Virus record (IMG/VR): IMGVR_UViG_2534681936_000021
Coordinates: 1 to 37,481 of that record
Origin: a virus
Taxonomy: Duplodnaviria; Heunggongvirae; Uroviricota; Caudoviricetes
Reading direction: 5' to 3' (one strand)
Length of the DNA: 37,481 bases
In this document: in pieces, positions 1 through 33,945 of the stretch
How the letters are laid out: the number at the start of each line of letters is the position of its first letter
Position numbering within the stretch: position 1 is the stretch's first letter
Notes under the pieces: model-generated
The model's database searches: none
What the model was told of the DNA's origin: nothing
The model's input: the letters and a program-made list of their open reading frames with translations, nothing else
Translations under genes and position numbers: made by a program

Positions 1-1005
1 TTAATCCCCCGTGGACACTGCGTGGACACTTACGCCACCTTTCAGCGGATTAAGGGCCACCGCATCCTGCAGGTAATCCGGTGCAAAATGCGCATATGCC
101 ATTGTTTGCTGAATGGTTGCGTGACCAAGAATCTTCTGAAGCGCAATAATGTTTCCTCCGTTCATCACAAAATGGCTGGCGAACGTATGCCGCAGCACAT
201 GTGCAGCCTGGCCTTTTGGTAAATCGGGCTTAACTCTTTTCAGCGCCAGGCAGAATTCCCGGTACTTCACCTCAAACAAGCTGCCTGTTTCTCTGGTTTT
301 GATCGCCTCACAAACTGCCTGCGAAATTGGCACTGTTCTCTTCCGGCCATTTTTGGTTTCAAGAAACGTTACACGGTTATGAACTATCTGTTCACCACGA
401 AGCTTACAAGCTTCACTCCAGCGCGCCCCTGTGCTTAAACACAAAAGCGCAACACGCCAGTAGTCGCCCTCCAGTGTATCGAGCAATAGCGCCACTTCCT
501 TCTGTGACAGGAACGCCATTTCTCGTGGAGATACATAAAGAATAGAAATTCCCCTTACTGGATGTTCTGCATCCCAAAGACCTATTTTTTTCAGCACGGT
601 AAACATTCCGGATAACCGATTCATGTACCTGTTAGCAGATGACGGTTTCAATCCTTCAGCTATCTTTTGAGAACGCCACGCGATAATTTTCAGCTTATCA
701 AGATCCACAGCCTGCATATCAGCGCCAAGCTCATTAATTATGTTGCGCAGTTGTTTTCGGTCTTCTTCCGCCTTACGCCTGTGCTGGCCGTGATACATCC
801 ACCACAACTCAAGCAAATCATTTAGCGTTCGACGATCACGGTAGCCCTGTATATATTCCCGCTTTTCAGCGTTCGCCATGATGTAGCGTTCAGTGGCCAC
901 CGCTACCGATTTTTTGTCAAATACCTTACGCACGCGCTTTCCCTTGCGTCCGTTCGGCCTGATGTCCAGCAAATAACGACCATCTTCGAGCTTCTTAATC
1001 GACAT
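1..1005 (-). CDS. int: tyrosine integrase, P2 Int-like
   Basis: Translation from the ATG at 1005 begins MSIKKLEDGRY...; C-terminal catalytic region HVLRHTFASHF...GH...Y resembles P2 Int as recalled. The track ORF starts at an upstream TTG (1020). Confidence 0.9.
   Translation of the reverse strand: MSIKKLEDGRYLLDIRPNGRKGKRVRKVFDKKSVAVATERYIMANAEKREYIQGYRDRRTLNDLLELWWMYHGQHRRKAEEDRKQLRNIINELGADMQAVDLDKLKIIAWRSQKIAEGLKPSSANRYMNRLSGMFTVLKKIGLWDAEHPVRGISILYVSPREMAFLSQKEVALLLDTLEGDYWRVALLCLSTGARWSEACKLRGEQIVHNRVTFLETKNGRKRTVPISQAVCEAIKTRETGSLFEVKYREFCLALKRVKPDLPKGQAAHVLRHTFASHFVMNGGNIIALQKILGHATIQQTMAYAHFAPDYLQDAVALNPLKGGVSVHAVSTGD
10..29. repeat. candidate attL core (tandem cgtggacac units) inside the int 3' end
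   Basis: cgtggacactgcgtggacac matches 36300-36319 at 17 of 20 positions in direct orientation. Confidence 0.35.
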
Positions 1006-1101
1006 TACGAAGCCCTCCAATGAACCGCTCTACAATTTCTCCAGCCTCTTTCCAGCAATAATCAGACCAGACAAAAAGCAGGTCTAACCAGTTTTCTGGC
1101 C

Positions 1102-4141: not shown

Positions 4142-4263
4142 GAAACCAGAACATGCACACACAAAAAAACCGCTTGCCATGCCGCAATCAGTCAGGTTAC
4201 ATTTCCGCTGCACCTCACAAAACGGGTGTCGGGTTTCGCAGCCTGCTGACTACACAAGCGCAC

Positions 4264-4284
4264 AACCGCGCCAGCGGTTTTTTT
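4264..4284 (+). terminator. intrinsic terminator-like hairpin (aaccgc-gcca-gcggtt followed by T7)
   Basis: 6-bp GC stem, 4-nt loop and a run of 7 T; lies within the non-coding stretch after the early ORFs. Confidence 0.5.
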
Positions 4285-4463
4285 GTGCGTACTGTATTGC
4301 CACGTTTTTTTCGCGTCAGAATTATGGCGGGGCGTACGGGGCCGACTTCGGTCGGGCCGGGTTCTTGTGTAGCCGGTACTGCGAACCTCGTACGTCTCGC
4401 CACCCACAGTTTCGCAGCTCTGGATGGTGAGTTTTCACAACTTACTACACAAGGGGCCACACC

Positions 4464-4640
4464 ATGGCAAACCGCAGACTTTCCCGCGCATCACGCGTCG
4501 CGCAAATCATGCACATCAATATGCTGCATGAGCGCAGCCACGCACTATCAAACATTTATTCCGCCTCTGTTTTCAGCTATCTGGCGGATGATCTGCGCGA
4601 GCTTCAACAGCTCATCCAGCAGCAAAACAAACTCCATTAA
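4464..4640 (+). CDS. possible 58-aa helical protein (MANRRLSRASRVAQIMHINMLHERSHAL...), below the ORF-track size cutoff
   Basis: ATG preceded by aagggg about 7 nt upstream; translation reads as amphipathic helix. Confidence 0.35.
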   Translation: MANRRLSRASRVAQIMHINMLHERSHALSNIYSASVFSYLADDLRELQQLIQQQNKLH

Positions 4641-4712
4641 TTCCTGTTCCGGGCCTTTCCTGCACCTTGCGGCGGGAGGCCTTCGCACATCTGTAACAAG
4701 AGGATTGCCGCA

Positions 4713-5078
4713 ATGATTCTCGCCAACGACTTTCTTGAATACCTGCTCAACACAGAACGTGATCTTGCCGCTCGCGTGCGTGATCGTTATGACATGTACC
4801 AGAAATCCCTGCCTGTACCGCAGCTCGCTGACGGAAAGATTGTTATTGATGGTCGCTACATGATTGACAGCCACGAGGGAAATTACAGGCTTTACCGCAT
4901 TGAAGGTGGCACCCCGTCCGTTATTGGCATTTACCAGCGCCCATCCTCTGCAATCGTCGATGTGATTGCCGACAGCATCCGCATCACACATCGCCATGCC
5001 GACACAGAAGACACCGTGCTGGAAATTCAGCGGCTGGCTGCCGTCTGCCGCGACACCCTGAATGGCATGACGAAGTAA
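4713..5078 (+). CDS. hypothetical protein preceding replication gene A (121 aa)
   Basis: RBS aagagga upstream; clean ORF ending 6 nt before the gene A start. Confidence 0.55.
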   Translation: MILANDFLEYLLNTERDLAARVRDRYDMYQKSLPVPQLADGKIVIDGRYMIDSHEGNYRLYRIEGGTPSVIGIYQRPSSAIVDVIADSIRITHRHADTEDTVLEIQRLAAVCRDTLNGMTK

Positions 5079-5084
5079 ATCACT

Positions 5085-7943
5085 ATGACGGCAGAGTACA
5101 TCAGGGACTGGCAACAACCGCGCCACGCAGTGGGGCGTGAAGGAACGGGGATCCCCGTTCCTGAATCCGCGCTTTCCTCCTGGCTGGATGCCTACCGGGC
5201 AGAGAACGAGCGCCGCCAGGAAATGGCTGATGCGGCGTTCTCCGCCACGCCGCTGAGCAACCTGATTAATAAAAGCCTGGACGCACAGGAAAAACAGGAC
5301 AAAACCATCACACTGGCAGGAGACGCCAGAAAACAGGCACGCGGCGCGGTGGATGAAGCCATGGCCTCGCTGCGCCTGCTGCCGTCCTATCTGCGCGATC
5401 CGCTTATTCGCCACCTCTCCTTCCTGCGCAAAAAACAGGAAGCCGATCGCCGGAAAGGCAAAAAGAGCTGGCAGGCTGAACGCTACGCGCGCGGAACCCT
5501 GCGCAAAATATTCGAACGTCTGGACCGCACCGACCACCGCTGGCTGACACCGGGTTATCGCTCCCTTGCCGGACGCGAACGCCTGGATGATTTGCTTTAC
5601 CTGCCGCAGCTCAACCAGCACCAGATACAGACGCTGGCCACCATGACGGCGGCGATGTTCAGCAGCACCTTCGAAAAACTCTGCGATGGCTTTGGCGCGA
5701 CCGATGGCGAACTGACCATGGATGTAACGCTGAAGGCGTATCAGATGCTGGCCCGCATGGCGTTACACCTGCACGCCATGCCGCCACATTACGAAGCTCT
5801 GAACAAGAGCGATCCGGATACGGAACTGTTACCGGGCGCAATCCTTCGCCTGACCTGTGCGGAATGGTGGAAACGCAAACTGTGGCTGTTACGTTGCGAG
5901 TGGCGGGAAGAACAACTCCGCGCCGCCTGTCTGGTTTCCAAAAAAACATCGCCCTATCTGAGCCAGGACGCGTTAAGCGAGTTTCGCGCACAGCGCGAGA
6001 AAACACGCGATTTCCTGAAAAGTTTCATGCTGGAAAACGAAGACGGGTTCACGATTGATCTCGAGACAGTGTATTACGCGGGAGTAAGTAACCCGGTTCA
6101 CCGTAAGGCAGAAATGATGGCCACCATGAAGGGGCTGGAACTTCTGGCCGAAGCCCGTGGCGACAAAGCGGTGTTTCTGACCATCACCTGCCCGTCAAAA
6201 TACCACGCCACAACAGAGAACGGTCATCCGAATCCCAAATGGAACGGGGCCACCATGCGCGACTCCAGCGATTACCTGGTTAACACGTTTTTTGCGGCGG
6301 TCCGCAAGAAACTGAACCGCGACGGCCTGCGCTGGTATGGCATCCGCACAGTGGAGCCTCACCATGACGGCACCGTGCACTGGCATATGATGGTCTTTGC
6401 TCATCCGGAAGAAATCGACACCATTGTGTCCCACACCCGCGATATTGCCATTCAGGAAGATCGTCACGAGCTGGGTGATGATATTACCCCACGCTTTAAG
6501 GCGGAGTACGTCGACGGCTCAAAAGGCACGCCAACCAGCTACATCGCCACCTACATCGGAAAGAACCTGGACAGCCGCGCCGTAGATGGCATCGACCCGA
6601 AAACGGGCAAGCCACGCGTTGACCACGAAACCGGAAAATCGATGGCCGAGAGCGTGGAACGCGCCATCGGCTGGGCGCGCCTTCACCGTGTCCGCCAGTT
6701 CCAGTTCTTTGGTATCCCCTCCCGTCAGGTGTGGCGTGAACTCCGCCGCCTTGCCAGCCAGATGGCACGCAACCCGGAAGGCCCGCAACGGCTGAAGGAT
6801 GACGCAATGGATGCGGTACTCGCTGCCGCTGATGCCGGATGTTTTGCCACCTACATAGAGAAACAGGGCGGCGTACTTGTTCCACGCAAAGACTACCTGA
6901 TTCGCACCGCCTACGACCTCGCAGATGAGCTGAACGATTACGGCGAACAGAGCGTACAGATTTACGGGATCTGGTCACCACTCATCGGGGAATCCTCCCG
7001 TGTGTGCACGCATCCGGATAACTGGAAGCTGGTAAGACGCAAACCGGAAGCGGAAGACAGCGCCCGCGAAAATGGTTTTGACCTTCAGGGCGCCCCTGCC
7101 GCCCCTTGGACTCGTGGCAATAACTGTCCCCGTATACAGGAAACGGGCAACAACGGGACAGAACAGCCGGAAGAACGGCCAGCACCGTGGCCGCAGCTTC
7201 CTGACGGCGTTGACGTGAATGAATGGATGCGCTCACTGAAACGGCACGAACACCGGGCGCTGATGCGTTCGCTGCGTGACAAACAGGCAAAAAACAGCAG
7301 TGATGAAATGCAGAACTGGACACAGAGCCGCAAACAGCCACAGCCTTTGCCTGATAACCACGAGTTACTCGCTAAAGAATGGCGGGAGTCTGCTGAATCT
7401 CTCGGCCTGCATATCGGTGAACAGCAGATGCAGCACCTGTTACGGGGCGGCAGTCTGTACGTTGACGGCAGCATCATTGCACCGCAGGGATTTGAAATTG
7501 TACGCAAACCGGATACCCGCCCGGACAGCCGAATCACGCAGCTCTGGCAACGCCTGAGCCGTAATCACGGCGTAAGCAGCACGGAGATCCGCCATAACCC
7601 GGTCGCCAGCTATCTGGAACAGCTGGGGGCATCAGACCCCGAAGCCGCCACACGCCTGGAATCCACACTTCAGCAGGACCAGAACACCATGAAAACCCCC
7701 GTTACCGTGCTTTCTGACATGCTGTGCGCCATCCGTGACGCAGAGCACGCACAGAGAATCAGTGAAACCACTGAACGCGCCCGCCGCAAAGCAGACCTGC
7801 TGCGGGGTAGCCTGACCAGTGGAAACAAAAAACAGACAGAAACGGGACTCACAAATCCCGTAAATGAGCAAAAACGTGCCGCGATATATGAAGCGCGCAC
7901 AAAACAGGCAAAAGCGGGATTTAAAAATCCTGTAACCGATTAA
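5085..7943 (+). CDS. A: replication initiation endonuclease, P2 gpA family (rolling-circle HUH nickase), 952 aa
   Basis: HUH-like motif EPHHDGTVHWHMMVF and tyrosine motif YIATYIGK in the translation; position after the early genes as in P2. Confidence 0.9.
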   Translation: MTAEYIRDWQQPRHAVGREGTGIPVPESALSSWLDAYRAENERRQEMADAAFSATPLSNLINKSLDAQEKQDKTITLAGDARKQARGAVDEAMASLRLLPSYLRDPLIRHLSFLRKKQEADRRKGKKSWQAERYARGTLRKIFERLDRTDHRWLTPGYRSLAGRERLDDLLYLPQLNQHQIQTLATMTAAMFSSTFEKLCDGFGATDGELTMDVTLKAYQMLARMALHLHAMPPHYEALNKSDPDTELLPGAILRLTCAEWWKRKLWLLRCEWREEQLRAACLVSKKTSPYLSQDALSEFRAQREKTRDFLKSFMLENEDGFTIDLETVYYAGVSNPVHRKAEMMATMKGLELLAEARGDKAVFLTITCPSKYHATTENGHPNPKWNGATMRDSSDYLVNTFFAAVRKKLNRDGLRWYGIRTVEPHHDGTVHWHMMVFAHPEEIDTIVSHTRDIAIQEDRHELGDDITPRFKAEYVDGSKGTPTSYIATYIGKNLDSRAVDGIDPKTGKPRVDHETGKSMAESVERAIGWARLHRVRQFQFFGIPSRQVWRELRRLASQMARNPEGPQRLKDDAMDAVLAAADAGCFATYIEKQGGVLVPRKDYLIRTAYDLADELNDYGEQSVQIYGIWSPLIGESSRVCTHPDNWKLVRRKPEAEDSARENGFDLQGAPAAPWTRGNNCPRIQETGNNGTEQPEERPAPWPQLPDGVDVNEWMRSLKRHEHRALMRSLRDKQAKNSSDEMQNWTQSRKQPQPLPDNHELLAKEWRESAESLGLHIGEQQMQHLLRGGSLYVDGSIIAPQGFEIVRKPDTRPDSRITQLWQRLSRNHGVSSTEIRHNPVASYLEQLGASDPEAATRLESTLQQDQNTMKTPVTVLSDMLCAIRDAEHAQRISETTERARRKADLLRGSLTSGNKKQTETGLTNPVNEQKRAAIYEARTKQAKAGFKNPVTD

Positions 7944-7967: not shown

Positions 7968-8927
7968 ATGAAAATTTGTATCGATGACGGCTCCACCAAC
8001 ATCAAGCTGGCATGGACTGAGAACGGCGAACGCCGCAACGCCATCAGCCCAAACAGCTTCAAGTCGGAATGGTCTGCGCCGTTCGGTGGCACGCAGCCCG
8101 CGAACTACATGCTTGATGGCGTGCGCTATGGTTTTGATCCGGTCAGCGATCGCTTTGTCCAGACGACCGACACGCAATACCAGTACAGCGATGTGAATGT
8201 CATTGCTATTCATCACGCGCTGGTCAAATCAGGCATCACACCACAGGAAGTGGATGTGGTTGTCACCCTGCCACTGAGCGAATATTTCGACACAAACGCA
8301 CAGCCGGACATGGTCAACATCAACCGCAAAAAAGCGAACGTCATGCGCCCGGTGGAGTACCAGAACGGCGAAGCATTCACTATCCGTAACGTACGGGTTA
8401 TGCCTGAATCCATTCCGGCTGGCTTTAAAGCACTGGCTGACATGAGTCCGTTTGAATCCCTGCTGATTGTGGATTTGGGCGGAACCACGCTGGATGTGGC
8501 AAAGGTTCAGGGGCAACTGGCAGGTATCAGCCAGGTGTTTTGCGATCCACACGTAGGCGTTTCTCTGATGGCCGATGCCGTACTGTCGGTGATGGCCACT
8601 AACGGTATGCGCACCAGTCACCACATCGCCAATACCATTATCGAACGTCGCCATAATGAAGCCTGGCTGCGCCAGCACATCCACAATGACGCGCATTACG
8701 CCAGCCTGATGGCGGTTATTCGTGAAAAGGAAGAAACACTGAAACAACGCGTGATCCGCGCGCTGGCGGGTTTTTCGGGTTACGGGCGGGTGATGGTTGT
8801 CGGTGGAGGGGCGGAGATTGTGGCACCCGCTATCCGCGAAGCCTGCGGAGTTAATGCGACTTTCATCGCGGACGGGGTGCCACAGTTTGCTCTGGTTAAT
8901 GGGCTGTACGCAATGGACAAGGAGTAA
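7968..8927 (+). CDS. parM: ParM/StbA-family actin-like ATPase
   Basis: N-terminus MKICIDDGSTNIKLAW plus YSDVNVIAIHHAL, VMPESIPAGF, LIVDLGGTTLDV and VMVVGGGAE closely parallel plasmid R1 ParM as recalled. Confidence 0.85.
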   Translation: MKICIDDGSTNIKLAWTENGERRNAISPNSFKSEWSAPFGGTQPANYMLDGVRYGFDPVSDRFVQTTDTQYQYSDVNVIAIHHALVKSGITPQEVDVVVTLPLSEYFDTNAQPDMVNINRKKANVMRPVEYQNGEAFTIRNVRVMPESIPAGFKALADMSPFESLLIVDLGGTTLDVAKVQGQLAGISQVFCDPHVGVSLMADAVLSVMATNGMRTSHHIANTIIERRHNEAWLRQHIHNDAHYASLMAVIREKEETLKQRVIRALAGFSGYGRVMVVGGGAEIVAPAIREACGVNATFIADGVPQFALVNGLYAMDKE

Positions 8928-8931
8928 ACCA

Positions 8932-9243
8932 ATGACAACACCAACCAGACGGATAAGTTTCTATCTGAAGCCAGCTGCCGTCAAGAACGAAGGAGAAGCA
9001 TGCGCCTGGCTGGACAGCCTTACACCAGAAGCCCGCAAAAGCGGCCAACGCGTGGCTTTTCTGGCCGGGCTGGCACTTCTGAAGACGAATCCGGCAGAGG
9101 CTTACCGACTGGCCGCATGGGCTGATGATGAGATGTTACCTGTGACACAAATCAGCTCAAAAAAGTTTGAAGCACAGTCTGCACCAGTGGCTAAGATAAC
9201 CAGCCAGATGGCTGGGAATATCCGGGCGTTATTTCCTGAGTAA
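8932..9243 (+). CDS. parR: ParR-like small DNA-binding partner (103 aa)
   Basis: RBS aaggag upstream, 4 nt after the parM stop; N-terminus RRISFYLKP and LAGLALL segment resemble R1 ParR as recalled. Confidence 0.6.
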   Translation: MTTPTRRISFYLKPAAVKNEGEACAWLDSLTPEARKSGQRVAFLAGLALLKTNPAEAYRLAAWADDEMLPVTQISSKKFEAQSAPVAKITSQMAGNIRALFPE

Positions 9244-9284
9244 AAGCATCTGCGCGAAAAATGCTCACGTTTATAGAGACAGTA

Positions 9285-9430
9285 TCATTCCATTTGGCAC
9301 ACTTACTTCAATAATCGATCTGTTAAACAAATAGATTGTCTATTATCTATCGATTAAAACGATCAATTATCTTGACAGTAATGTGCCTTTTTGTAAGATC
9401 GTTCGCATTGTGAGCGACAAGATAATTGCG
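9285..9430. repeat. iteron-like repeat cluster (four CGATC/TCGAT cores; inverted repeat caattatcttg / caagataattg)
   Basis: Seen directly in the sequence downstream of parR; candidate centromere or operator. Confidence 0.35.
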
Positions 9431-9448
9431 CGGCATTGTCCATGCAAA

Positions 9449-9478
9449 ACGCCCCAATAGCAGCAACTATTGGGGCGT
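9449..9478. other. perfect 12-bp stem hairpin (acgccccaatag / ctattggggcgt)
   Basis: Perfect inverted repeat with a 6-nt loop, flanked by AAAA on one side. Confidence 0.5.
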
Positions 9479-9505
9479 AAAACTCGGTCGGACTCACTTA
9501 ACCTG

Positions 9506-9590
9506 ATATGCGTGCCTTCCGAAGTAAATCAAAATGTGCGTCGTATATTTTATTGCTTACACGCACCTCTGTAAAGGCACGCATATTTTT
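9506..9590 (+). promoter_or_regulatory. nested palindromes plus T-run immediately upstream of the 89-aa ORF (attenuator/terminator-like leader)
   Basis: 13-bp perfect inverted repeat atatgcgtgcctt / aaggcacgcatat enclosing an inner gtgcgt/acgcac pair, followed by TTTTT and then the RBS. Confidence 0.4.
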
Positions 9591-9607
9591 CCTATGAGGT
9601 AAATAAA

Positions 9608-9877
9608 GTGCGGGCTAAAACAGGTATTTGCAAGAACCCTCATCGTTATAATCCAACATTTCTGTCTCTCCCTGAATATCAAGGACAAGAAGGTCGGCAC
9701 AAATGCGCTGCCTGTGCTTTTGAGCTAGGCATAAAAGATGCGCTTGAAGGACGCGCTATGGCTCAGAATGATTTAGTTTTAGCTAACATTCCGTTTAGCC
9801 AGGCTGGAACTGTAAGGCACAGAGATGCCTATGAAGCATATGTTCGTGGTTGGCGATTAATACACAGCAACAATTGA
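9608..9877 (+). CDS. hypothetical 89-aa protein (GTG start)
   Basis: RBS gaggt 7 nt upstream; ORF followed directly by an intrinsic terminator; no family recognised. Confidence 0.4.
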   Translation: MRAKTGICKNPHRYNPTFLSLPEYQGQEGRHKCAACAFELGIKDALEGRAMAQNDLVLANIPFSQAGTVRHRDAYEAYVRGWRLIHSNN

Positions 9878-9885
9878 TACTTTTG

Positions 9886-9909
9886 AAGCGCCGATAAGGC
9901 GCTTTTTTT
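9886..9909 (+). terminator. intrinsic terminator (aagcgcc-gataa-ggcgctt followed by T7)
   Basis: 7-bp stem, 5-nt loop and T-run 9 nt after the ORF stop. Confidence 0.65.
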
Positions 9910-10438
9910 GTTTGCACGATAGTGCACAAGTTTGCACAATTTTTTTGAACGACTTTTTGTACTTCCGGCCCGCGTGGTGGCTGGATCCGTCAAGGATCCG
10001 TACGTGCACAAAAAAACGCGTTTTTTCTGCGCGCAGGTGACGGGGGAACAGCCCGCGTTTCAGGGGGTAAACAGCATTCCCTGAACGATGTCGCAGCGAC
10101 ACAACGGAATGGCTGTCTTTCTCACGCTGAGCGTGAAAAATACGTGAGGGCTTTTGATTTGATGGGGTGACTGATAAGGCCGTCAAAATCGCACTGAGGC
10201 GACGAGAACATGCAGTCAGCACGGCGGGATTGCGTAAGAGCCTGACCGTCGATGATGACAATAAGCTGGAAGGCGTCGTGAAATTATCTGATTGATACAG
10301 GAGCTGGAGAGTCGGGGCATAAATTTTTTATGCCCCGGCGAAGCAGCAGACAAGCGAAGCGCGTCAGCGATACGGCACCTTGCCGACCATACTTCATAAG
10401 TGCAAAATACGAGCAAAGAAATCAATGGAGGCTGTCTT

Positions 10439-10963
10439 ATGGTCATTAATTACAAGCAGTTAAGAGAAAAACGGGAGCAGGTAAAGGAGAGCTTTCGCCG
10501 CAATGAAGATCTGACCCCGCTTGTACGCCTTGCCCAGGGCATTGTTGATGCTTATGAAATCTCGCTGGAGCTGCCATCACAGACCTGGACAGATAGCGAC
10601 GGTAATCGCCAGCATTACGTTTCATGCGGACTGGAAGCAGCCGAAGGATTTCGCAGAATGCCTTTATCCCAGATCCCTGCCGCTACCCCCAAAGCACGAG
10701 GCAGCAATGATGAGCGAAAACTGACTTTTAGTATTGAAACGGTGGTTGACGACACACCTGGCGAAGTCGCGTTCGTGCACACTCCTGTTTCGATCGCAAT
10801 GTATAACGATGAAATACAGGTTCGCGTTAATAATAATATCGTGCCACTTAAAGAAGGTAATTCACCCTACACCACCGTTTGTGAAGCCATTCAATATTAC
10901 GTTCTCTCTGAAATTGATAATCTCAAGCCTGACGGCACCCAGAAAATGGTTCAACTCTGGTAA
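10439..10963 (+). CDS. hypothetical 174-aa protein, unknown function
   Basis: RBS ggagg 8 nt upstream of the ATG at 10439; ends at the bidirectional terminator shared with Q. Confidence 0.5.
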   Translation: MVINYKQLREKREQVKESFRRNEDLTPLVRLAQGIVDAYEISLELPSQTWTDSDGNRQHYVSCGLEAAEGFRRMPLSQIPAATPKARGSNDERKLTFSIETVVDDTPGEVAFVHTPVSIAMYNDEIQVRVNNNIVPLKEGNSPYTTVCEAIQYYVLSEIDNLKPDGTQKMVQLW

Positions 10964-10994
10964 AAAGGACAGCCCCATCACGGGGCTGTTTTTT
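10964..10994. terminator. bidirectional intrinsic terminator between the 174-aa ORF and Q
   Basis: aaaaa-acagcccc-atcac-ggggctgt-tttttt: 8-bp stem flanked by an A-run and a T-run. Confidence 0.65.
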
Positions 10995-12024
10995 CATCAA
11001 GAAGAGCATAAGAGTTAAAACGGATCACCTCTTCGCCAAGCCAGTCATTGATGTGCTTCATAGCCTCCATGACGGGCATCAGCTCGTTAATTGCGTAAAC
11101 CCGCGCGGCCTTCTCCACATCACCAAACGCACTTTTTTCGCCCGGCATCGCCCCCATCAGTTGCGGCGGAACGCGGTGCGCAGCCAGCACATCATCACGG
11201 GATGCCGCCTTAACATTCATGAACTCATCCTTTGCGGTGATCTGCTGGAACGGCAAAATTTGCACCCCCTCTTTGCCCCCGTTGGGCGCATGGATGAGCA
11301 CGTTTTTAAACGCACCACCACCACGCGCACCCTGTAACGTTTCTTTCAGGGAGTCCATGCTTTCGCGGTTTACCTGCGCTGCACCGATGTAGATGATGCA
11401 CCCGGCGTGGGATCCATTGTCGTAATACAGTTTTCTGAACATGTCCGCCGAATGAGACAGGCTGGCCGAGAGTAATGCGCCAAGATATTCCGGCATGCCG
11501 TAAATTTCCTGGTTAATGTCCGGATTCATCAGGTGGCACACTTTGCCAGGGCGAAACTGAAACGCGTCCTTGCCATCCTGCACATACCACCATGATTCAA
11601 GATCGCTTCCGCGTCGCATGTATTTCGCCAGGGCGTGCCGTAATTTAAGCGGTTCACCGAGCATATTGCTTCGAAGCTCAAGGAATGCGTTACCGAACAC
11701 AAACCAGTCCAGCGCCAGCGCCGAGAAATCCTGCCGGGAAAGCAGCGGGTGCGGAATATAGCAGCCGAGCAATACATTGCGCTTAAAGTAAAGCGCAGAC
11801 TGATGCCAGGACGTTTGCCGGGCAGCTCTTGCCAGACCGTACCAGTCCACCGGGGTTTCATACCACCGCCCGTTATCAGCACAGTACATATTGTCCAGCA
11901 GGTCATGCCCGGTCAGGCGATAAGGACCATCAAATGTGAATGCACTGAGCGATGATTCTTTCCTGAGCGCATCAGCGAGATCAATGCGTGAACTCATGCG
12001 CACTTTTTTATTTTTTCTGCTCAT
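10978..12024 (-). CDS. Q: portal protein, P2 gpQ-like
   Basis: 348 aa; position and size match P2 Q; divergent from O as in P2. Confidence 0.85.
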   Translation of the reverse strand: MSRKNKKVRMSSRIDLADALRKESSLSAFTFDGPYRLTGHDLLDNMYCADNGRWYETPVDWYGLARAARQTSWHQSALYFKRNVLLGCYIPHPLLSRQDFSALALDWFVFGNAFLELRSNMLGEPLKLRHALAKYMRRGSDLESWWYVQDGKDAFQFRPGKVCHLMNPDINQEIYGMPEYLGALLSASLSHSADMFRKLYYDNGSHAGCIIYIGAAQVNRESMDSLKETLQGARGGGAFKNVLIHAPNGGKEGVQILPFQQITAKDEFMNVKAASRDDVLAAHRVPPQLMGAMPGEKSAFGDVEKAARVYAINELMPVMEAMKHINDWLGEEVIRFNSYALLDEKTAP

Positions 12025-13775
12025 CAGAACTCCATAACCGTGAAACGCTCGTTTTCTCCTTCGCCGCCAATCGGTTCATTAATGACAGCAAGCATGGTTG
12101 CCCACGCAAGGTCGCCGTGGCTGATCCCCCTCGCTCGGTCCGTTTCGTAAGTGATAAAGCCGCCCGGTGTTTTCACCTTACGCACGGCGTTAAAGGCCGC
12201 GACCAGCTCGCGTTCGGCGCGATCGTATTCCCACCGCCCGGCACGCATTATTTGCAGCATTTTCAGTACCAGCGACCGTTTTGATGACAGCGTGAAGGTG
12301 TACGGAATAGCAGCAGGGAAAAACCGTTTCACTATCTGATAAACAGCCTCCCCGTTCCCGCCCGTCACATCAATGCCGATGTGTTCCACGTTGTAGCGAC
12401 ACGTGAACTCCTCAATGACTCTGGCCTGTTCTTCAAACTCCAGCCCCTGAACGCGTCGCGTCTCCACCGTTCGAAAACGGCCACCAGGAACAGCCGGAGG
12501 AACCACCACGGACACCGCGCCGCTGTCGCCGTTTCCACTGCTGCCGTTTGCGTCATACCCAATCCATACCGGACGATTCCCCATCGGGCGGGGAGCAAAA
12601 GGTTTCCAGTCTTTCCAGTCGTCGTATCCATCAACACCGCAGCCAATCAGGATATTCAGGTTAAATGCCGATTCCCCTTCGTGGACAAACTCACACATAT
12701 AGAGATTGCGGAACTCGTCTTCGGTGTTTTCATCACGAATTTCATCAATATCGGTGTGTTTCCAGCCGTGATTAACCACATCTTCCAGCGTGACAATTTG
12801 CCGCCACGTCCGGTCGGGGCAGATAAGTCCGTTATGCAGCGTTTTCCAGTCCACAGAAAAACGCTGGCGTTTATGCGCGGCCTTTTTCTCGTTCCAGCGG
12901 TCGCCGTTCCAATAGACGTATGCCTCGTGCGTTTCGGTGGATGGCGTGGAGAAGTAGGTGCGCCGCAGTCCGCTGAGGGTTGCCATAGCGCCAGCCACCT
13001 TGCGCAGTTCAGCAAAGCGACTGACCCAGAAAAATTCATCAAAATAAAAATTGCCTGTGTAGGACTGTGCCGTCGCAGCAGAAGTACCGAGAAAATGCAG
13101 TTCTGCGCCGTTGGAGAGGATGATTTTATCGCCCCCTTTCAGCTCCACATCAACTTCAGCCGCGGCCTTCTGAATAATGCTTTTAAACTGGAACGCCTGA
13201 CGACGCGACGCAGACAAAAAAATCTGGTTACGCTGGTAAGGTTGTGCCACATCGTCACGCAGCGCCATCAGCAGTGCTTCCTGTGCAAAATACCAGGTCG
13301 CCCCAATCTGTCGGGATTTCAGGATCATCCTGTTACGTATCCCGGCTTCACTGCAAAGGGTCAGGGAGTCAAACCAGCCCCGCTGATGCCACTCCAGCCT
13401 GCTGATGATTTTTTCCCGCAGTGCGGCAATCTGCTCCGGCGTGAAATGATTTTTAAGTTTTTTCGCCCGGCCTTTCTTTCCTGTGGCCGTCGCATCCGGC
13501 TGGCCATCATGCAGTTTTTTAAGCTGCCGGGTCAGCAGGTCTATTTCCTTAAAGTCACCACCTGTTTTATTCTGTTTTTCAGTAAGCTGGATGAGGCGCG
13601 CATCGATGGACTGCGTGACACGCTGCACGGGTGGCGTTTCATCCCACTGGTCGCGTTTTTTCCACGCATAAATCGTGTTCGGGTTTATTCCCATCAGACG
13701 TGATATTTCTGCGGGCGGATAACCCTGCCAGTAAAGTTGCCGCGCACGCTGGCGCACAAAAGCGTCCTGAATCAT
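12024..13775 (-). CDS. P: terminase large (ATPase) subunit, P2 gpP-like
   Basis: 583 aa; ATPase-like segment; stop overlaps the Q start. Confidence 0.9.
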   Translation of the reverse strand: MIQDAFVRQRARQLYWQGYPPAEISRLMGINPNTIYAWKKRDQWDETPPVQRVTQSIDARLIQLTEKQNKTGGDFKEIDLLTRQLKKLHDGQPDATATGKKGRAKKLKNHFTPEQIAALREKIISRLEWHQRGWFDSLTLCSEAGIRNRMILKSRQIGATWYFAQEALLMALRDDVAQPYQRNQIFLSASRRQAFQFKSIIQKAAAEVDVELKGGDKIILSNGAELHFLGTSAATAQSYTGNFYFDEFFWVSRFAELRKVAGAMATLSGLRRTYFSTPSTETHEAYVYWNGDRWNEKKAAHKRQRFSVDWKTLHNGLICPDRTWRQIVTLEDVVNHGWKHTDIDEIRDENTEDEFRNLYMCEFVHEGESAFNLNILIGCGVDGYDDWKDWKPFAPRPMGNRPVWIGYDANGSSGNGDSGAVSVVVPPAVPGGRFRTVETRRVQGLEFEEQARVIEEFTCRYNVEHIGIDVTGGNGEAVYQIVKRFFPAAIPYTFTLSSKRSLVLKMLQIMRAGRWEYDRAERELVAAFNAVRKVKTPGGFITYETDRARGISHGDLAWATMLAVINEPIGGEGENERFTVMEF

Positions 13776-31536: not shown

Positions 31537-31693
31537 AGCTTCAGCCCCTTGTATCCGTTAAATGATTCGGCAACAATCATCACCCACCACGCGCGTAATC
31601 TCACTCCTGCGCCGTTCTCCCGCCACGGCGACAACAAAAAGCAGTAACCCCCTCCGCACGCACATGCGACCATGCCGCACAGGGAGGGAACAG

Positions 31694-32802
31694 ATGACCG
31701 ACACCACCATGCAATTGCTCAGTCAGGGCACAGACCCCGTGAAAATGCCGGATTTTGATATTCTCGCGGAGGGTAAAACGCTGTCAGGCGTGGCAGAGCG
31801 CCTGATGAGCCTGTCACTGACCGACAACCGGGGATTTGAAGCGGACCAGCTCACCATCACGCTGGATGATGCGGATGGTCAGTTGCAGCTACCGCCACGG
31901 GGCGCGCGCCTGACGGTTCTCATTGGCTGGAAAGGAGAACCGCTGACAGAAAAAGGCACTTACATTGTTGATGAAATCGCTCACGAAGGACCGCCGGACA
32001 GGCTGACTGTTTCAGCCAGAAGCGCAGATTTTCGGGATGAATTTAACGTTAAACGTGAGGTGTCCTGGCATGATGTGACCGTTGAGCGTGTGGTATCCGC
32101 CATCGCTCATCGGTACGGTCTGAAACCGCAAATCAGCGAAATGCTGATGGATATCGAAATCGACCACGCCGACCAGACCGAAGAAAGCGACATGTCCTTC
32201 CTTACGCGCATGGCGGAAATGCTGGGCGCAATCACCACGGTAAAAAGCGGCAATCTGTTATTCATCATGCCTGGTGGTGGCGTGAACGCACAGGGCCAGC
32301 CGTTGCCCTCGTTCGCCATTACACGCAGCAGTGGCGATCGCCATCAGTTCCGCATTGCTGACCGCGAGGCGTATACGGGTGTACGCGCCTACTGGCTTGA
32401 TCTTAATTACGGGAAAAAGAAAAAGTCAGCGTGAAACGCCGCAAACCGCCAAAACCCAAAAAGGAGAAAAGCAGCAGCCGTGAAGGTGATTATATGGAAG
32501 GCGCGGAAGGCAATGTGTTTGTGTTACGCAAGACTTATCAGAACGAGCAGGCAGCAAGACGCGCAGCGGCGGCAAAGTGGCAGCAGCTACAACGCGGAGC
32601 CGCATCATTCTCCATCATGCTGGCACGCGGACGCGCAGAACTCTACCCCGAAATGCATGGCACGGTAACAGGCTTTAAAAGCGAGATTGATAATCAGGAC
32701 TGGATTATTGCAAAAGCCGAGCACACCATTGATAACAGCGGCTTTACCACACAGCTTGAGCTTGAGGCAAAAATCCCGGAATGGATAGCAGAAACAGAGT
32801 GA
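31694..32802 (+). pseudogene. D: late control / tail protein gpD-like, split by a single-base frameshift in the gggaaaaagaaaaag run (about 32411-32430)
   Basis: Track ORFs ending at 32434 and starting at 32431 together give a gpD-like protein (...SWHDVT..., ...GDRHQF..., ...QDWIIAKAEH...SGFTTQLELE...). Confidence 0.75.
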
Positions 32803-32922: not shown

Positions 32923-33945
32923 TTAATACGCATTTAATTTAAATTTGTATTTGCCTTCTATGTAATGGATAAATTCAATTATGCTTTTTTCTATCGCATC
33001 TAATATATGAATATATCCATCCCGATTTAAGGTCCTATCCAACTCAAAGTGATGAACTATCCCATGTCTATATTGTATGATTTCAGAAATTCGATTCTCA
33101 AGAAAATCAACTGATTTTCCAATTCTTTTTTTCTTATAAAGAATCGCTCTCACATCTATATCCAGCCACTCTTTATATGCTTTGTTTAGGTGGGTTAAGT
33201 TTTGAAAAGTGTAATTTCTTGCAATAACACTTTCTATTGAAATATTTCCTTTCTCTATCTCAAGCAGAATATCAAAATCAACTTTTTGCTTATACGATGT
33301 TCTTTTTGCTATTGCGAAAGGATCGTACTTTATAAGTATTTGAAAAGCTCTAGAGAAAAAATATTCAAACATAGCAACCGCAAAAGGTACTAATCCATTA
33401 TATATAACTCTACTGGGATCCATACATTGCATGTAATCAAAGTATTCGGATAAGCCGCCATCTTCCGGTAGGTTTAATTTAATAGAAGGTTCAGGTAAGG
33501 CATGTTTAACAGCGGAAATCTCATGATGGACATGATTAAATATTGAAGAAATGCCACGACTGATCGGACTACTAGAATCCTTCCATAGAGGAGCGTACCT
33601 ATTTTTCCCATAATCACCTATAAGTGTTCCACCAAAAAGACTCCGTGCGCCTTTTAGAACATCATTAAGCATTTTTACATCATGCCAACTAGCGCTATAT
33701 AAATTACGCACATGCAATGCCCATTTATTACCAGATATGTGTAGTTCGTCATTTGAAACAGGATATATATCAGCCGAAACTCCATCTGTAGATTTGAAGT
33801 CCGTATCATCAAACCAAGAGTAATTCAACGTTCCTTGGGGCCATTCCCACAAATGTTTACACCTTTTAAAACCTAAATTTTCAAGGTAATTTTTAAGTTC
33901 GTTTCTAGTTGCTTTTTTAGGGTACAGCGTTATATCTCTTCCCAT
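32923..33945 (-). CDS. hypothetical 340-aa protein in an AT-rich insertion; C-terminal Rx4HH motif (candidate HEPN-like abortive-infection protein)
   Basis: Long clean ORF in markedly AT-rich DNA between D and ogr; motif YRHGIVHHFE near the C-terminus. Confidence 0.6.
   Translation of the reverse strand: MGRDITLYPKKATRNELKNYLENLGFKRCKHLWEWPQGTLNYSWFDDTDFKSTDGVSADIYPVSNDELHISGNKWALHVRNLYSASWHDVKMLNDVLKGARSLFGGTLIGDYGKNRYAPLWKDSSSPISRGISSIFNHVHHEISAVKHALPEPSIKLNLPEDGGLSEYFDYMQCMDPSRVIYNGLVPFAVAMFEYFFSRAFQILIKYDPFAIAKRTSYKQKVDFDILLEIEKGNISIESVIARNYTFQNLTHLNKAYKEWLDIDVRAILYKKKRIGKSVDFLENRISEIIQYRHGIVHHFELDRTLNRDGYIHILDAIEKSIIEFIHYIEGKYKFKLNAY

Follow-up and report, generated by a model that had tools for sequence, protein, structure and literature searches.

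A single-gene module beside portal gene Q

The DNA analyzed here, comprising all 37,481 nucleotides of IMG/VR record IMGVR_UViG_2534681936_000021 (hereafter the window), represents a P2-type prophage in its integrated state, which belongs to the P88 group within genus Xuanwuvirus (Peduoviridae) and in which an open reading frame (ORF) of 174 amino acids (aa) lies between the replication gene A, encoding gpA (5085-7943), and the portal gene Q (10978-12024, minus strand, with a match to Pfam Phage_portal). The coding sequence occupies positions 10439-10963 of the plus strand, from an ATG at 10439 to a TAA at 10961-10963, and a Shine-Dalgarno element, GGAGG, could be read from the sequence at 10428-10432 on the same strand, 6 nucleotides (nt) before the ATG, in agreement with the strong element described in the original prediction for this ORF. 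An alternative and longer GTG start at 10400 is not used, because all homologues begin at the methionine equivalent to that encoded by the ATG (MVINY or MxITY).

Comparison with natural variants further showed that this frame is no product of chance. Differences between the window copy and 19 distinct intact natural variants were mainly synonymous, a typical comparison giving 22 synonymous against 5-7 non-synonymous changes and a ratio of non-synonymous to synonymous substitution rates (dN/dS) of about 0.07, with values of 0.04-0.14 across these variants, save one very close variant. The start, the stop and the coding nature of the ORF, as originally predicted, were thereby confirmed. Several copies were shortened or frameshifted (P0011-P0017; L056), as a chance or decaying ORF without function might be, but the low dN/dS, the full-length conservation of the protein across genera and its confident fold prediction all speak against that explanation, which we regard as already refuted because of the selection analysis and to which we assign next to no probability.

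Alignment of the window with the genomes of P88 and phage 520873, both of which are collinear with it on both flanks and lack the sequence from 10368 to about 11025, delimited an insertion or replacement module at 10368-11025 (plus strand) that carries the 174-aa gene. The left junction of this module is sharp, falling between 10367 and 10368, while its right edge is fuzzy and lies within the last 12-16 codons of Q. A sigma-70-type promoter, TTGCCG-17-CAAAAT, is predicted at 10380-10408 on the plus strand, 12 nt from the left edge of the module, and TTGTCT-17-CAAAAT is found equally far from the ATG in Salmonella homologues, the proteins of which are 60-63% identical. The Ogr-type late-promoter element TGT-N12-ACA was not seen upstream of the 174-aa ORF when the sequence was read for it.

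At the other end of the gene, 5 nt past the stop codon, begins a hairpin with a 9-bp GC-rich stem (10969-10989) that has the features of a bidirectional intrinsic terminator, with a T-run on the plus strand and a preceding A-run that forms a T-run on the minus strand. Its free energy was calculated to -21.3 kcal/mol for the plus strand and -17.4 kcal/mol for the minus strand, with z-scores of -5.5 and -4.0, respectively, against shuffled sequences. Since the stop codon of Q (10978-10980) and the last three Q codons fall within the hairpin, the terminator is truly shared between the 174-aa gene and Q, and both this position and the folding bear out the earlier proposal of a common bidirectional terminator. 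The homologues examined from four other genera likewise had a hairpin immediately downstream, whereas the Trabulsiella homologue showed no obvious one.

The C-terminal tail of Q (10978-11025, minus strand) comes in variants that are linked to the presence of the 174-aa gene. Read up to the stop codon, this tail of about 12 codons is NSYALLDEKTAP in the window, NTYALLEEK in a gene-bearing Salmonella phage and NPYALLDIQPTS at the empty site of P88 and phage 520873, the window tail being similar to that of the Salmonella phage. The extreme end of Q accordingly reads ...ALLDEKTAP with the 174-aa gene and ...ALLDIQPTS at the empty site. That the tails differ between the filled and empty states suggests that the module moves by homologous recombination, for which the cos-side sequence and the end of Q would serve as the recombination arms. 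The difference in G+C content (GC) is modest, with 0.43-0.53 across the ORF compared to 0.52-0.58 in Q and in the large terminase gene P (12024-13775, minus strand). Outside the module, at 10311-10338, a strong and conserved hairpin, GGGGCATAAA...TTTATGCCCC, with a 13-bp stem and no U-tract on either strand, gave a free energy of -28.9 kcal/mol and a z-score of -6.6; it was invariant in an alignment of four phages, and at empty sites it falls about 30 nt beyond the Q stop codon.

Presence of the gene and its position next to cos

We found the gene to be optional, as revealed by a comparison across related phages of the kind proposed together with the original prediction. The locus was present in 1146 of 5426 complete Escherichia coli genomes, with the site filled in 397 and an empty junction in 712, so that the gene has a frequency of about 7% in this set. 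It is frequent in successful lineages including the sequence type 131 (ST131) strain JJ1886. Phage genome records with the gene include those of vB_EcoM-705R2, vB_EcoM-569R5 and PhiR44_2, and that of P88 is without it, viable phages occurring in both states. At 38 of 40 IMG/VR loci (the other two being incomplete upstream), the cos region, a 42-codon frame, the hairpin at 10311-10338, the module and Q followed each other in constant order, and genes to the left of cos varied freely across the 40 loci. An 89-aa ORF at 9608-9877 of the window (plus strand; phrog_3941, unknown function), found at 12 of these loci and preceded by an AT-rich non-coding stretch at 9244-9607 (GC about 0.40), is such variable cargo left of cos. 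Other genes in its place are a DUF4760 gene together with a hypothetical gene in JJ1886 and ClpX-like zinc-finger ORFs in P88.

The sequence at 9913-10046 is probably the cos, or terminase-recognition, region, with the cut site placed from conserved blocks. TGCAC occurs here at 9913, 9923 and 9933, in exact 10-bp phasing, and again at 10005, followed by a GC-rich and lineage-variable stretch and then, at 10027-10046, by the conserved block CTGCGCGCAGGTGACGGGGG. P2-like phages of E. coli, Salmonella and Trabulsiella have these blocks in common, and the genome record of P88_4B11 is linearized at the equivalent of window position ~9958. The block CTGCGCGCAGGTGACGGGGG is similar to what immediately follows the 19-nt cohesive end of P2 and 186, where TGCGCGC is found. 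The 19-nt cos sequences of P2 and 186 themselves were not present, matches at 12 or more of the 19 bases being common by chance, and Rfam gave nothing in 9200-11000. The cos type of these phages probably differs from that of P2 and 186 and, if so, P4-type satellites sharing the P2 cos might escape packaging by them.

The sole ORF between the cos region and the 174-aa gene is the 42-codon frame at 10167-10295 (plus strand), which is an annotated coding sequence in P88 (gp22), P88_4B11 (gp01) and PhiR44_2. Among 23 variants of this frame the differences concentrate at codon position 2, with the start codon lost in three variants and internal stops in two. The frame is thus probably not protein-coding and may instead be a non-coding cos-proximal element. 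Because it does not evolve as a coding sequence, no genuine gene is likely to precede the 174-aa gene at the left end of the virion DNA, as had been suggested on the condition that cos lies in the upstream non-coding stretch, although the position of cos itself is here placed from conserved blocks. The accompanying description of the surroundings as a prophage end region did not hold. In P2-type prophages cos lies in the middle of the element once integrated, and in the window it is found about 10 kb from the integrase gene (1-1020, minus strand).

Nor is the position unusual for a cargo gene, as had also been claimed; it is an ordinary, textbook cargo site in an already catalogued locus. P2-like phages have their main hotspot of accessory and anti-phage genes in the gpA-gpQ interval, which surrounds cos (PMC9122126, PMC9519451, PMC13586616), and the slot between cosL and Q had already, decades ago, been proposed as a point of entry for foreign genes (PMC5694545, with reference to Dodd & Egan 1996 and Nakayama 1999). 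The JJ1886 copy of the gene (WP_000236495, 99.7% identical at the DNA level) is indeed listed within the hotspot, as 'hypothetical', in Table S5A of Rousset 2022. ORF1-4 of phiRSY1 come first at the left virion end, between cos and the portal gene (PMC5694545), as the 174-aa gene probably does, and the earlier work cited in the same paper places the retrons Ec67 and Ec86 in 186-like prophages (Dodd & Egan 1996) and the cargo of phiCTX in the cosL-gpQ slot (Nakayama 1999). These cosL-gpQ cargoes and the 174-aa gene are alike in having been acquired without disturbing the phage's own functions. They comprise a toxin, reverse transcriptases and other ORFs, unrelated to the 174-aa protein with its lack of a recognizable domain; the phiCTX cargo we take to be the cytotoxin gene ctx.

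Protein family, predicted fold and genomic contexts

The 174-aa protein gave a full-length match to phrog_5091 of PHROGs v4 (E = 1.4e-67, residues 1-168 against profile positions 1-164 of 164), which is the family of the protein itself and carries no functional annotation beyond 'unknown function'. When 1.8 billion cluster representatives were searched exhaustively with a profile, 87 matched, most of them full-length proteins about 155-175 aa long, and an alignment was made of 46 of these and the query. Each of its 47 members matched phrog_5091 and no other family. The named sources were Escherichia, Salmonella, Trabulsiella, Klebsiella, Serratia, Pectobacterium, Providencia, Morganella and Xenorhabdus, the relatives being confined to Enterobacterales, and distant members used as tblastn queries against sequenced phages either recovered only the same four E. 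coli phages or gave no match; locus searches with single distant members added few loci. When the protein and its 47 relatives were scanned with Pfam, NCBIfam and PADLOC, nothing rose above noise, and domain scans of the 174-aa protein found no DNA-binding domain, signal peptide or membrane segment, in keeping with the earlier view of an unassigned family. Two motifs are family-wide, Y-x2-S-L-x-L-P-x3-W-x-D-x2-G-x4-Y-V and F-x-I-x-T-V-x-D-D-x-P-x-G-G, and the conserved residues are mostly structural, with no catalytic constellation evident in the family alignment.

AlphaFold, supplied with the 47 sequences, predicted a confident single domain (predicted local distance difference test score, pLDDT, 88.9; predicted template modelling score, pTM, 0.79). 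The model opens with a helical hairpin (residues 5-42), continues as an antiparallel sheet of eight strands and closes with a helix at the C-terminus (143-160), with a low-confidence loop at residues 80-92 that is specific to the window lineage. The protein, at 19.8 kDa, is soluble and mildly acidic (isoelectric point 5.0, net charge -6), within a family range of net charge from -1 to -12. Foldseek searches against PDB and BFVD, for which the query was a less good model than that with a pLDDT of 88.9, gave nothing below E = 0.02, and the best structural neighbours, all non-significant, were the FP domain of PI31/Fbxo7, actin-capping protein, the C-terminal domain of TnsE and P1 DarA. No significant match in fold or sequence was found among solved anti-defence, anti-CRISPR and immunity proteins. 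A profile match in PDB to designed helical-repeat proteins (E = 3e-10), obtained with a profile of close relatives, was discarded as spurious: single repeats had E values of 0.06-0.9 ('LKEsGSsYEvICE'), the scores sum over repeats, and the match was gone with a broader profile. The remote-homology search and structure prediction, which had been suggested as a check, thus led to phrog_5091 and to a confident fold, with no characterized relative found.

Family members are nearly always found in prophages, in several types of surroundings. Distant homologues adjoin the portal gene in P2-like prophages of Salmonella and Morganella. In Trabulsiella the homologue lies on the opposite side of the cos-like block, immediately following gpA and with two toxin-antitoxin pairs coming after it. 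In the Trabulsiella guamensis prophage (L004, 8738-10053), what comes next is a HicB-containing pair and then a Phd/Fic pair, making up a small cluster of toxin-antitoxin-type cargo located between gpA and the cos-like region. Providencia-type E217-like prophages have a homologue between the tail tube genes and the gene for a protein of about 810 aa, probably the tape measure, with hairpins on both sides, and in a Klebsiella lambdoid prophage the homologue occupies the classical moron slot between antiterminator Q and the lysis genes. On one metagenomic contig a homologue adjoins an EcoRII-type restriction-modification pair, and in one lineage it is found alone at a non-phage chromosomal site, between a resistance-nodulation-division (RND) efflux pump and an epimerase/AraC pair.

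For a gene located between cos and the portal gene, a role in packaging had to be weighed, whether as a cos-binding protein, a terminase helper or a portal- or head-associated virion accessory protein. Such a role would, however, have to be reconciled with the absence of the gene from about two-thirds of the P88-like prophages that share the same cos region, the gene-less prophages having a cos region that is 91-100% identical (sampled loci) and Q and terminase genes that are 96-99% identical. The position is also not fixed, considering the other side of cos in Trabulsiella, the lambdoid prophage of Klebsiella, the tail cluster in Providencia and the non-phage lineage, and the gene has its own predicted promoter and terminator, is not part of a late operon and encodes a protein in which no DNA-binding domain was found. 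The product was not identified as any known packaging or cos-binding protein, and the evidence points away from packaging. The relatives in other cargo slots, together with the pattern of presence and absence, therefore exclude a packaging role for practical purposes; we judge it very improbable, and hold with high confidence that the gene is a moron with an accessory role rather than one that serves packaging.

With regard to the other genes of the window, a partition pair of ParM/StbB type (ParM/StbA and Plasmid_stab_B; 7968-9243, plus strand) directly follows gpA, and thereby sits in a prophage that also has an integrase; such partition systems are found in about a quarter of P2-like phages (Rousset 2022). 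The scaffold gene extends from 13897 onward, beyond P. Rfam matches above the gathering score were obtained for isrK (4210-4284) and C4 antisense RNA (4320-4407), both on the plus strand and overlapping an Ash-like ORF at 4153-4716. With them, the early region of a P2-type prophage harbours, at 4210-4407, an antisense immunity element of the P1/P7 type. The homologue of tail gene D at 31562-32802 (plus strand) is split into two overlapping ORFs of 290 and 123 aa, both matching Phage_GPD below the Pfam cut-off, which reflects either a frameshift, and hence a defective prophage, or a sequencing error. Just beyond it, a 340-aa ORF at 32923-33945 (minus strand) gave a weak sub-threshold match to HEPN_RiboL-PSP (E = 1.2e-4, 22.5 bits against a cut-off of 28.4) and is a possible second cargo or defence gene.

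Candidate functions of the 174-aa protein

The 174-aa gene is a self-contained accessory cassette, or moron, of a P88-like prophage. The cassette combines a single gene, preceded by a weak predicted sigma-70 promoter and a strong ribosome-binding site, with a terminator of its own. It would spread through recombination that involves the conserved sequence on the cos side and the 3' end of Q, and the gene would be dispensable for growth of the phage. It is comparable to lambdoid morons in the slot between Q and the lysis genes, in that the Klebsiella member sits in exactly that slot and that the window copy, too, has an anatomy of (predicted) promoter, gene and terminator, whereas the type of host phage differs and the 174-aa protein has no homology to any characterized moron product. 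The autonomy of the cassette and the repeated use of moron slots by its relatives suggest that transcription would be independent of the phage late operons, most likely occurring in the lysogen.

Owing to this probable expression in the lysogen and to the record of the hotspot, our leading guess is phage exclusion by protein binding. The product would bind another protein rather than act as an enzyme and, in a Tin-type exclusion, would block an essential protein of a competing phage or satellite. The old and tin genes of P2 share with the 174-aa gene the inter-core gpA-gpQ interval beside cos, known as an anti-phage hotspot (Rousset 2022, Vassallo 2022), and, probably, transcription from a promoter of their own; they lie on the gpA side of cos whereas the 174-aa gene lies on its Q side, and no sequence similarity was seen. 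We propose an anti-phage, or phage-exclusion, role of the 174-aa protein only tentatively, with our doubts outweighing our belief in it, and the accessory cassette with an anti-phage role, although the best explanation of the findings as a whole, should be taken as plausible rather than probable.

Several observations weigh against such a role. The predicted promoter matches the consensus at 8 of 12 positions, which is below the standard scan threshold. None of 5027 PADLOC models (PADLOC-DB v2) matched the 174-aa protein and the hits of its relatives were scattered, single-member noise, with no homology found to a known or candidate defence protein in that collection. The lack of an effector-like domain, a transmembrane segment and a partner gene is atypical for abortive-infection systems, and within-species selection, as seen in the 19 variants, was purely purifying, without an arms-race signature. 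Furthermore, the cos-to-Q site is essentially biallelic in E. coli, unlike the diverse cargo left of cos and the hyper-diverse gpA-gpQ hotspot at large. Only 15-32% of the P2-like hotspot proteins without assigned function were predicted to be antiviral by machine learning (PMC13586616), and no experiment on the 174-aa protein was found in the searchable literature under WP_000236495 or phrog_5091.

It could instead be that the protein acts in counter-defence, as a small soluble inhibitor of host or prophage immunity that would bind, for example, a sensor or an effector. Usefulness to several phage types would then explain the movement of the gene between them. This should be set against the lack of any significant match to solved anti-defence proteins in fold or sequence and against a charge that, at -6, is far too weak for a DNA mimic, since anti-restriction proteins of the Ocr/ArdA type need a very strong negative charge. 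Moreover, one family member stands alone in a chromosome between an efflux pump and an AraC regulator, the lambdoid and E217-like copies are found among late and not early genes, and the architecture with own terminators resembles that of lysogenic-conversion morons. Counter-defence appears unlikely to us in view of these findings.

That resemblance leads to the question of whether the gene serves some other lysogenic-conversion or regulatory function, affecting a host pathway, stress tolerance, or prophage induction or maintenance. Morons commonly carry host-fitness genes, and the stand-alone chromosomal family member, the strongly purifying selection and the frequency of the gene in successful lineages including ST131 JJ1886 would all agree with such a function. 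The hotspot is also known to house partition systems and cytolethal distending toxin (Rousset 2022). On the other hand, no domain, signal peptide, membrane segment or DNA-binding motif in the protein suggests a pathway of this kind and the family is nearly always found in prophages, and we would consider this explanation improbable as well.

Returning to phage conflict in the wider sense, covering both exclusion and counter-defence, we consider it close to, but still short of, an even chance that the 174-aa protein represents a new family of single-gene, non-enzymatic phage-conflict factors, without detectable fold relatives in PDB or BFVD, that spreads as a cassette through Enterobacterales prophages of the P2-like, E217-like and lambdoid types, those of pandemic E. 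coli ST131 among them. At present the gene stands as another uncharacterized hypothetical gene in an already mapped hotspot, with an unsurprising location and of moderate interest. The occurrence of empty and filled sites in near-identical prophages nonetheless offers easy, natural isogenic comparisons. If the protein is active against phages or against defence systems, it would add to the catalogue a new small effector without known fold relatives, and its action would have a bearing on host range in phage therapy, for about 7% of complete E. coli genomes and including clinically important lineages.
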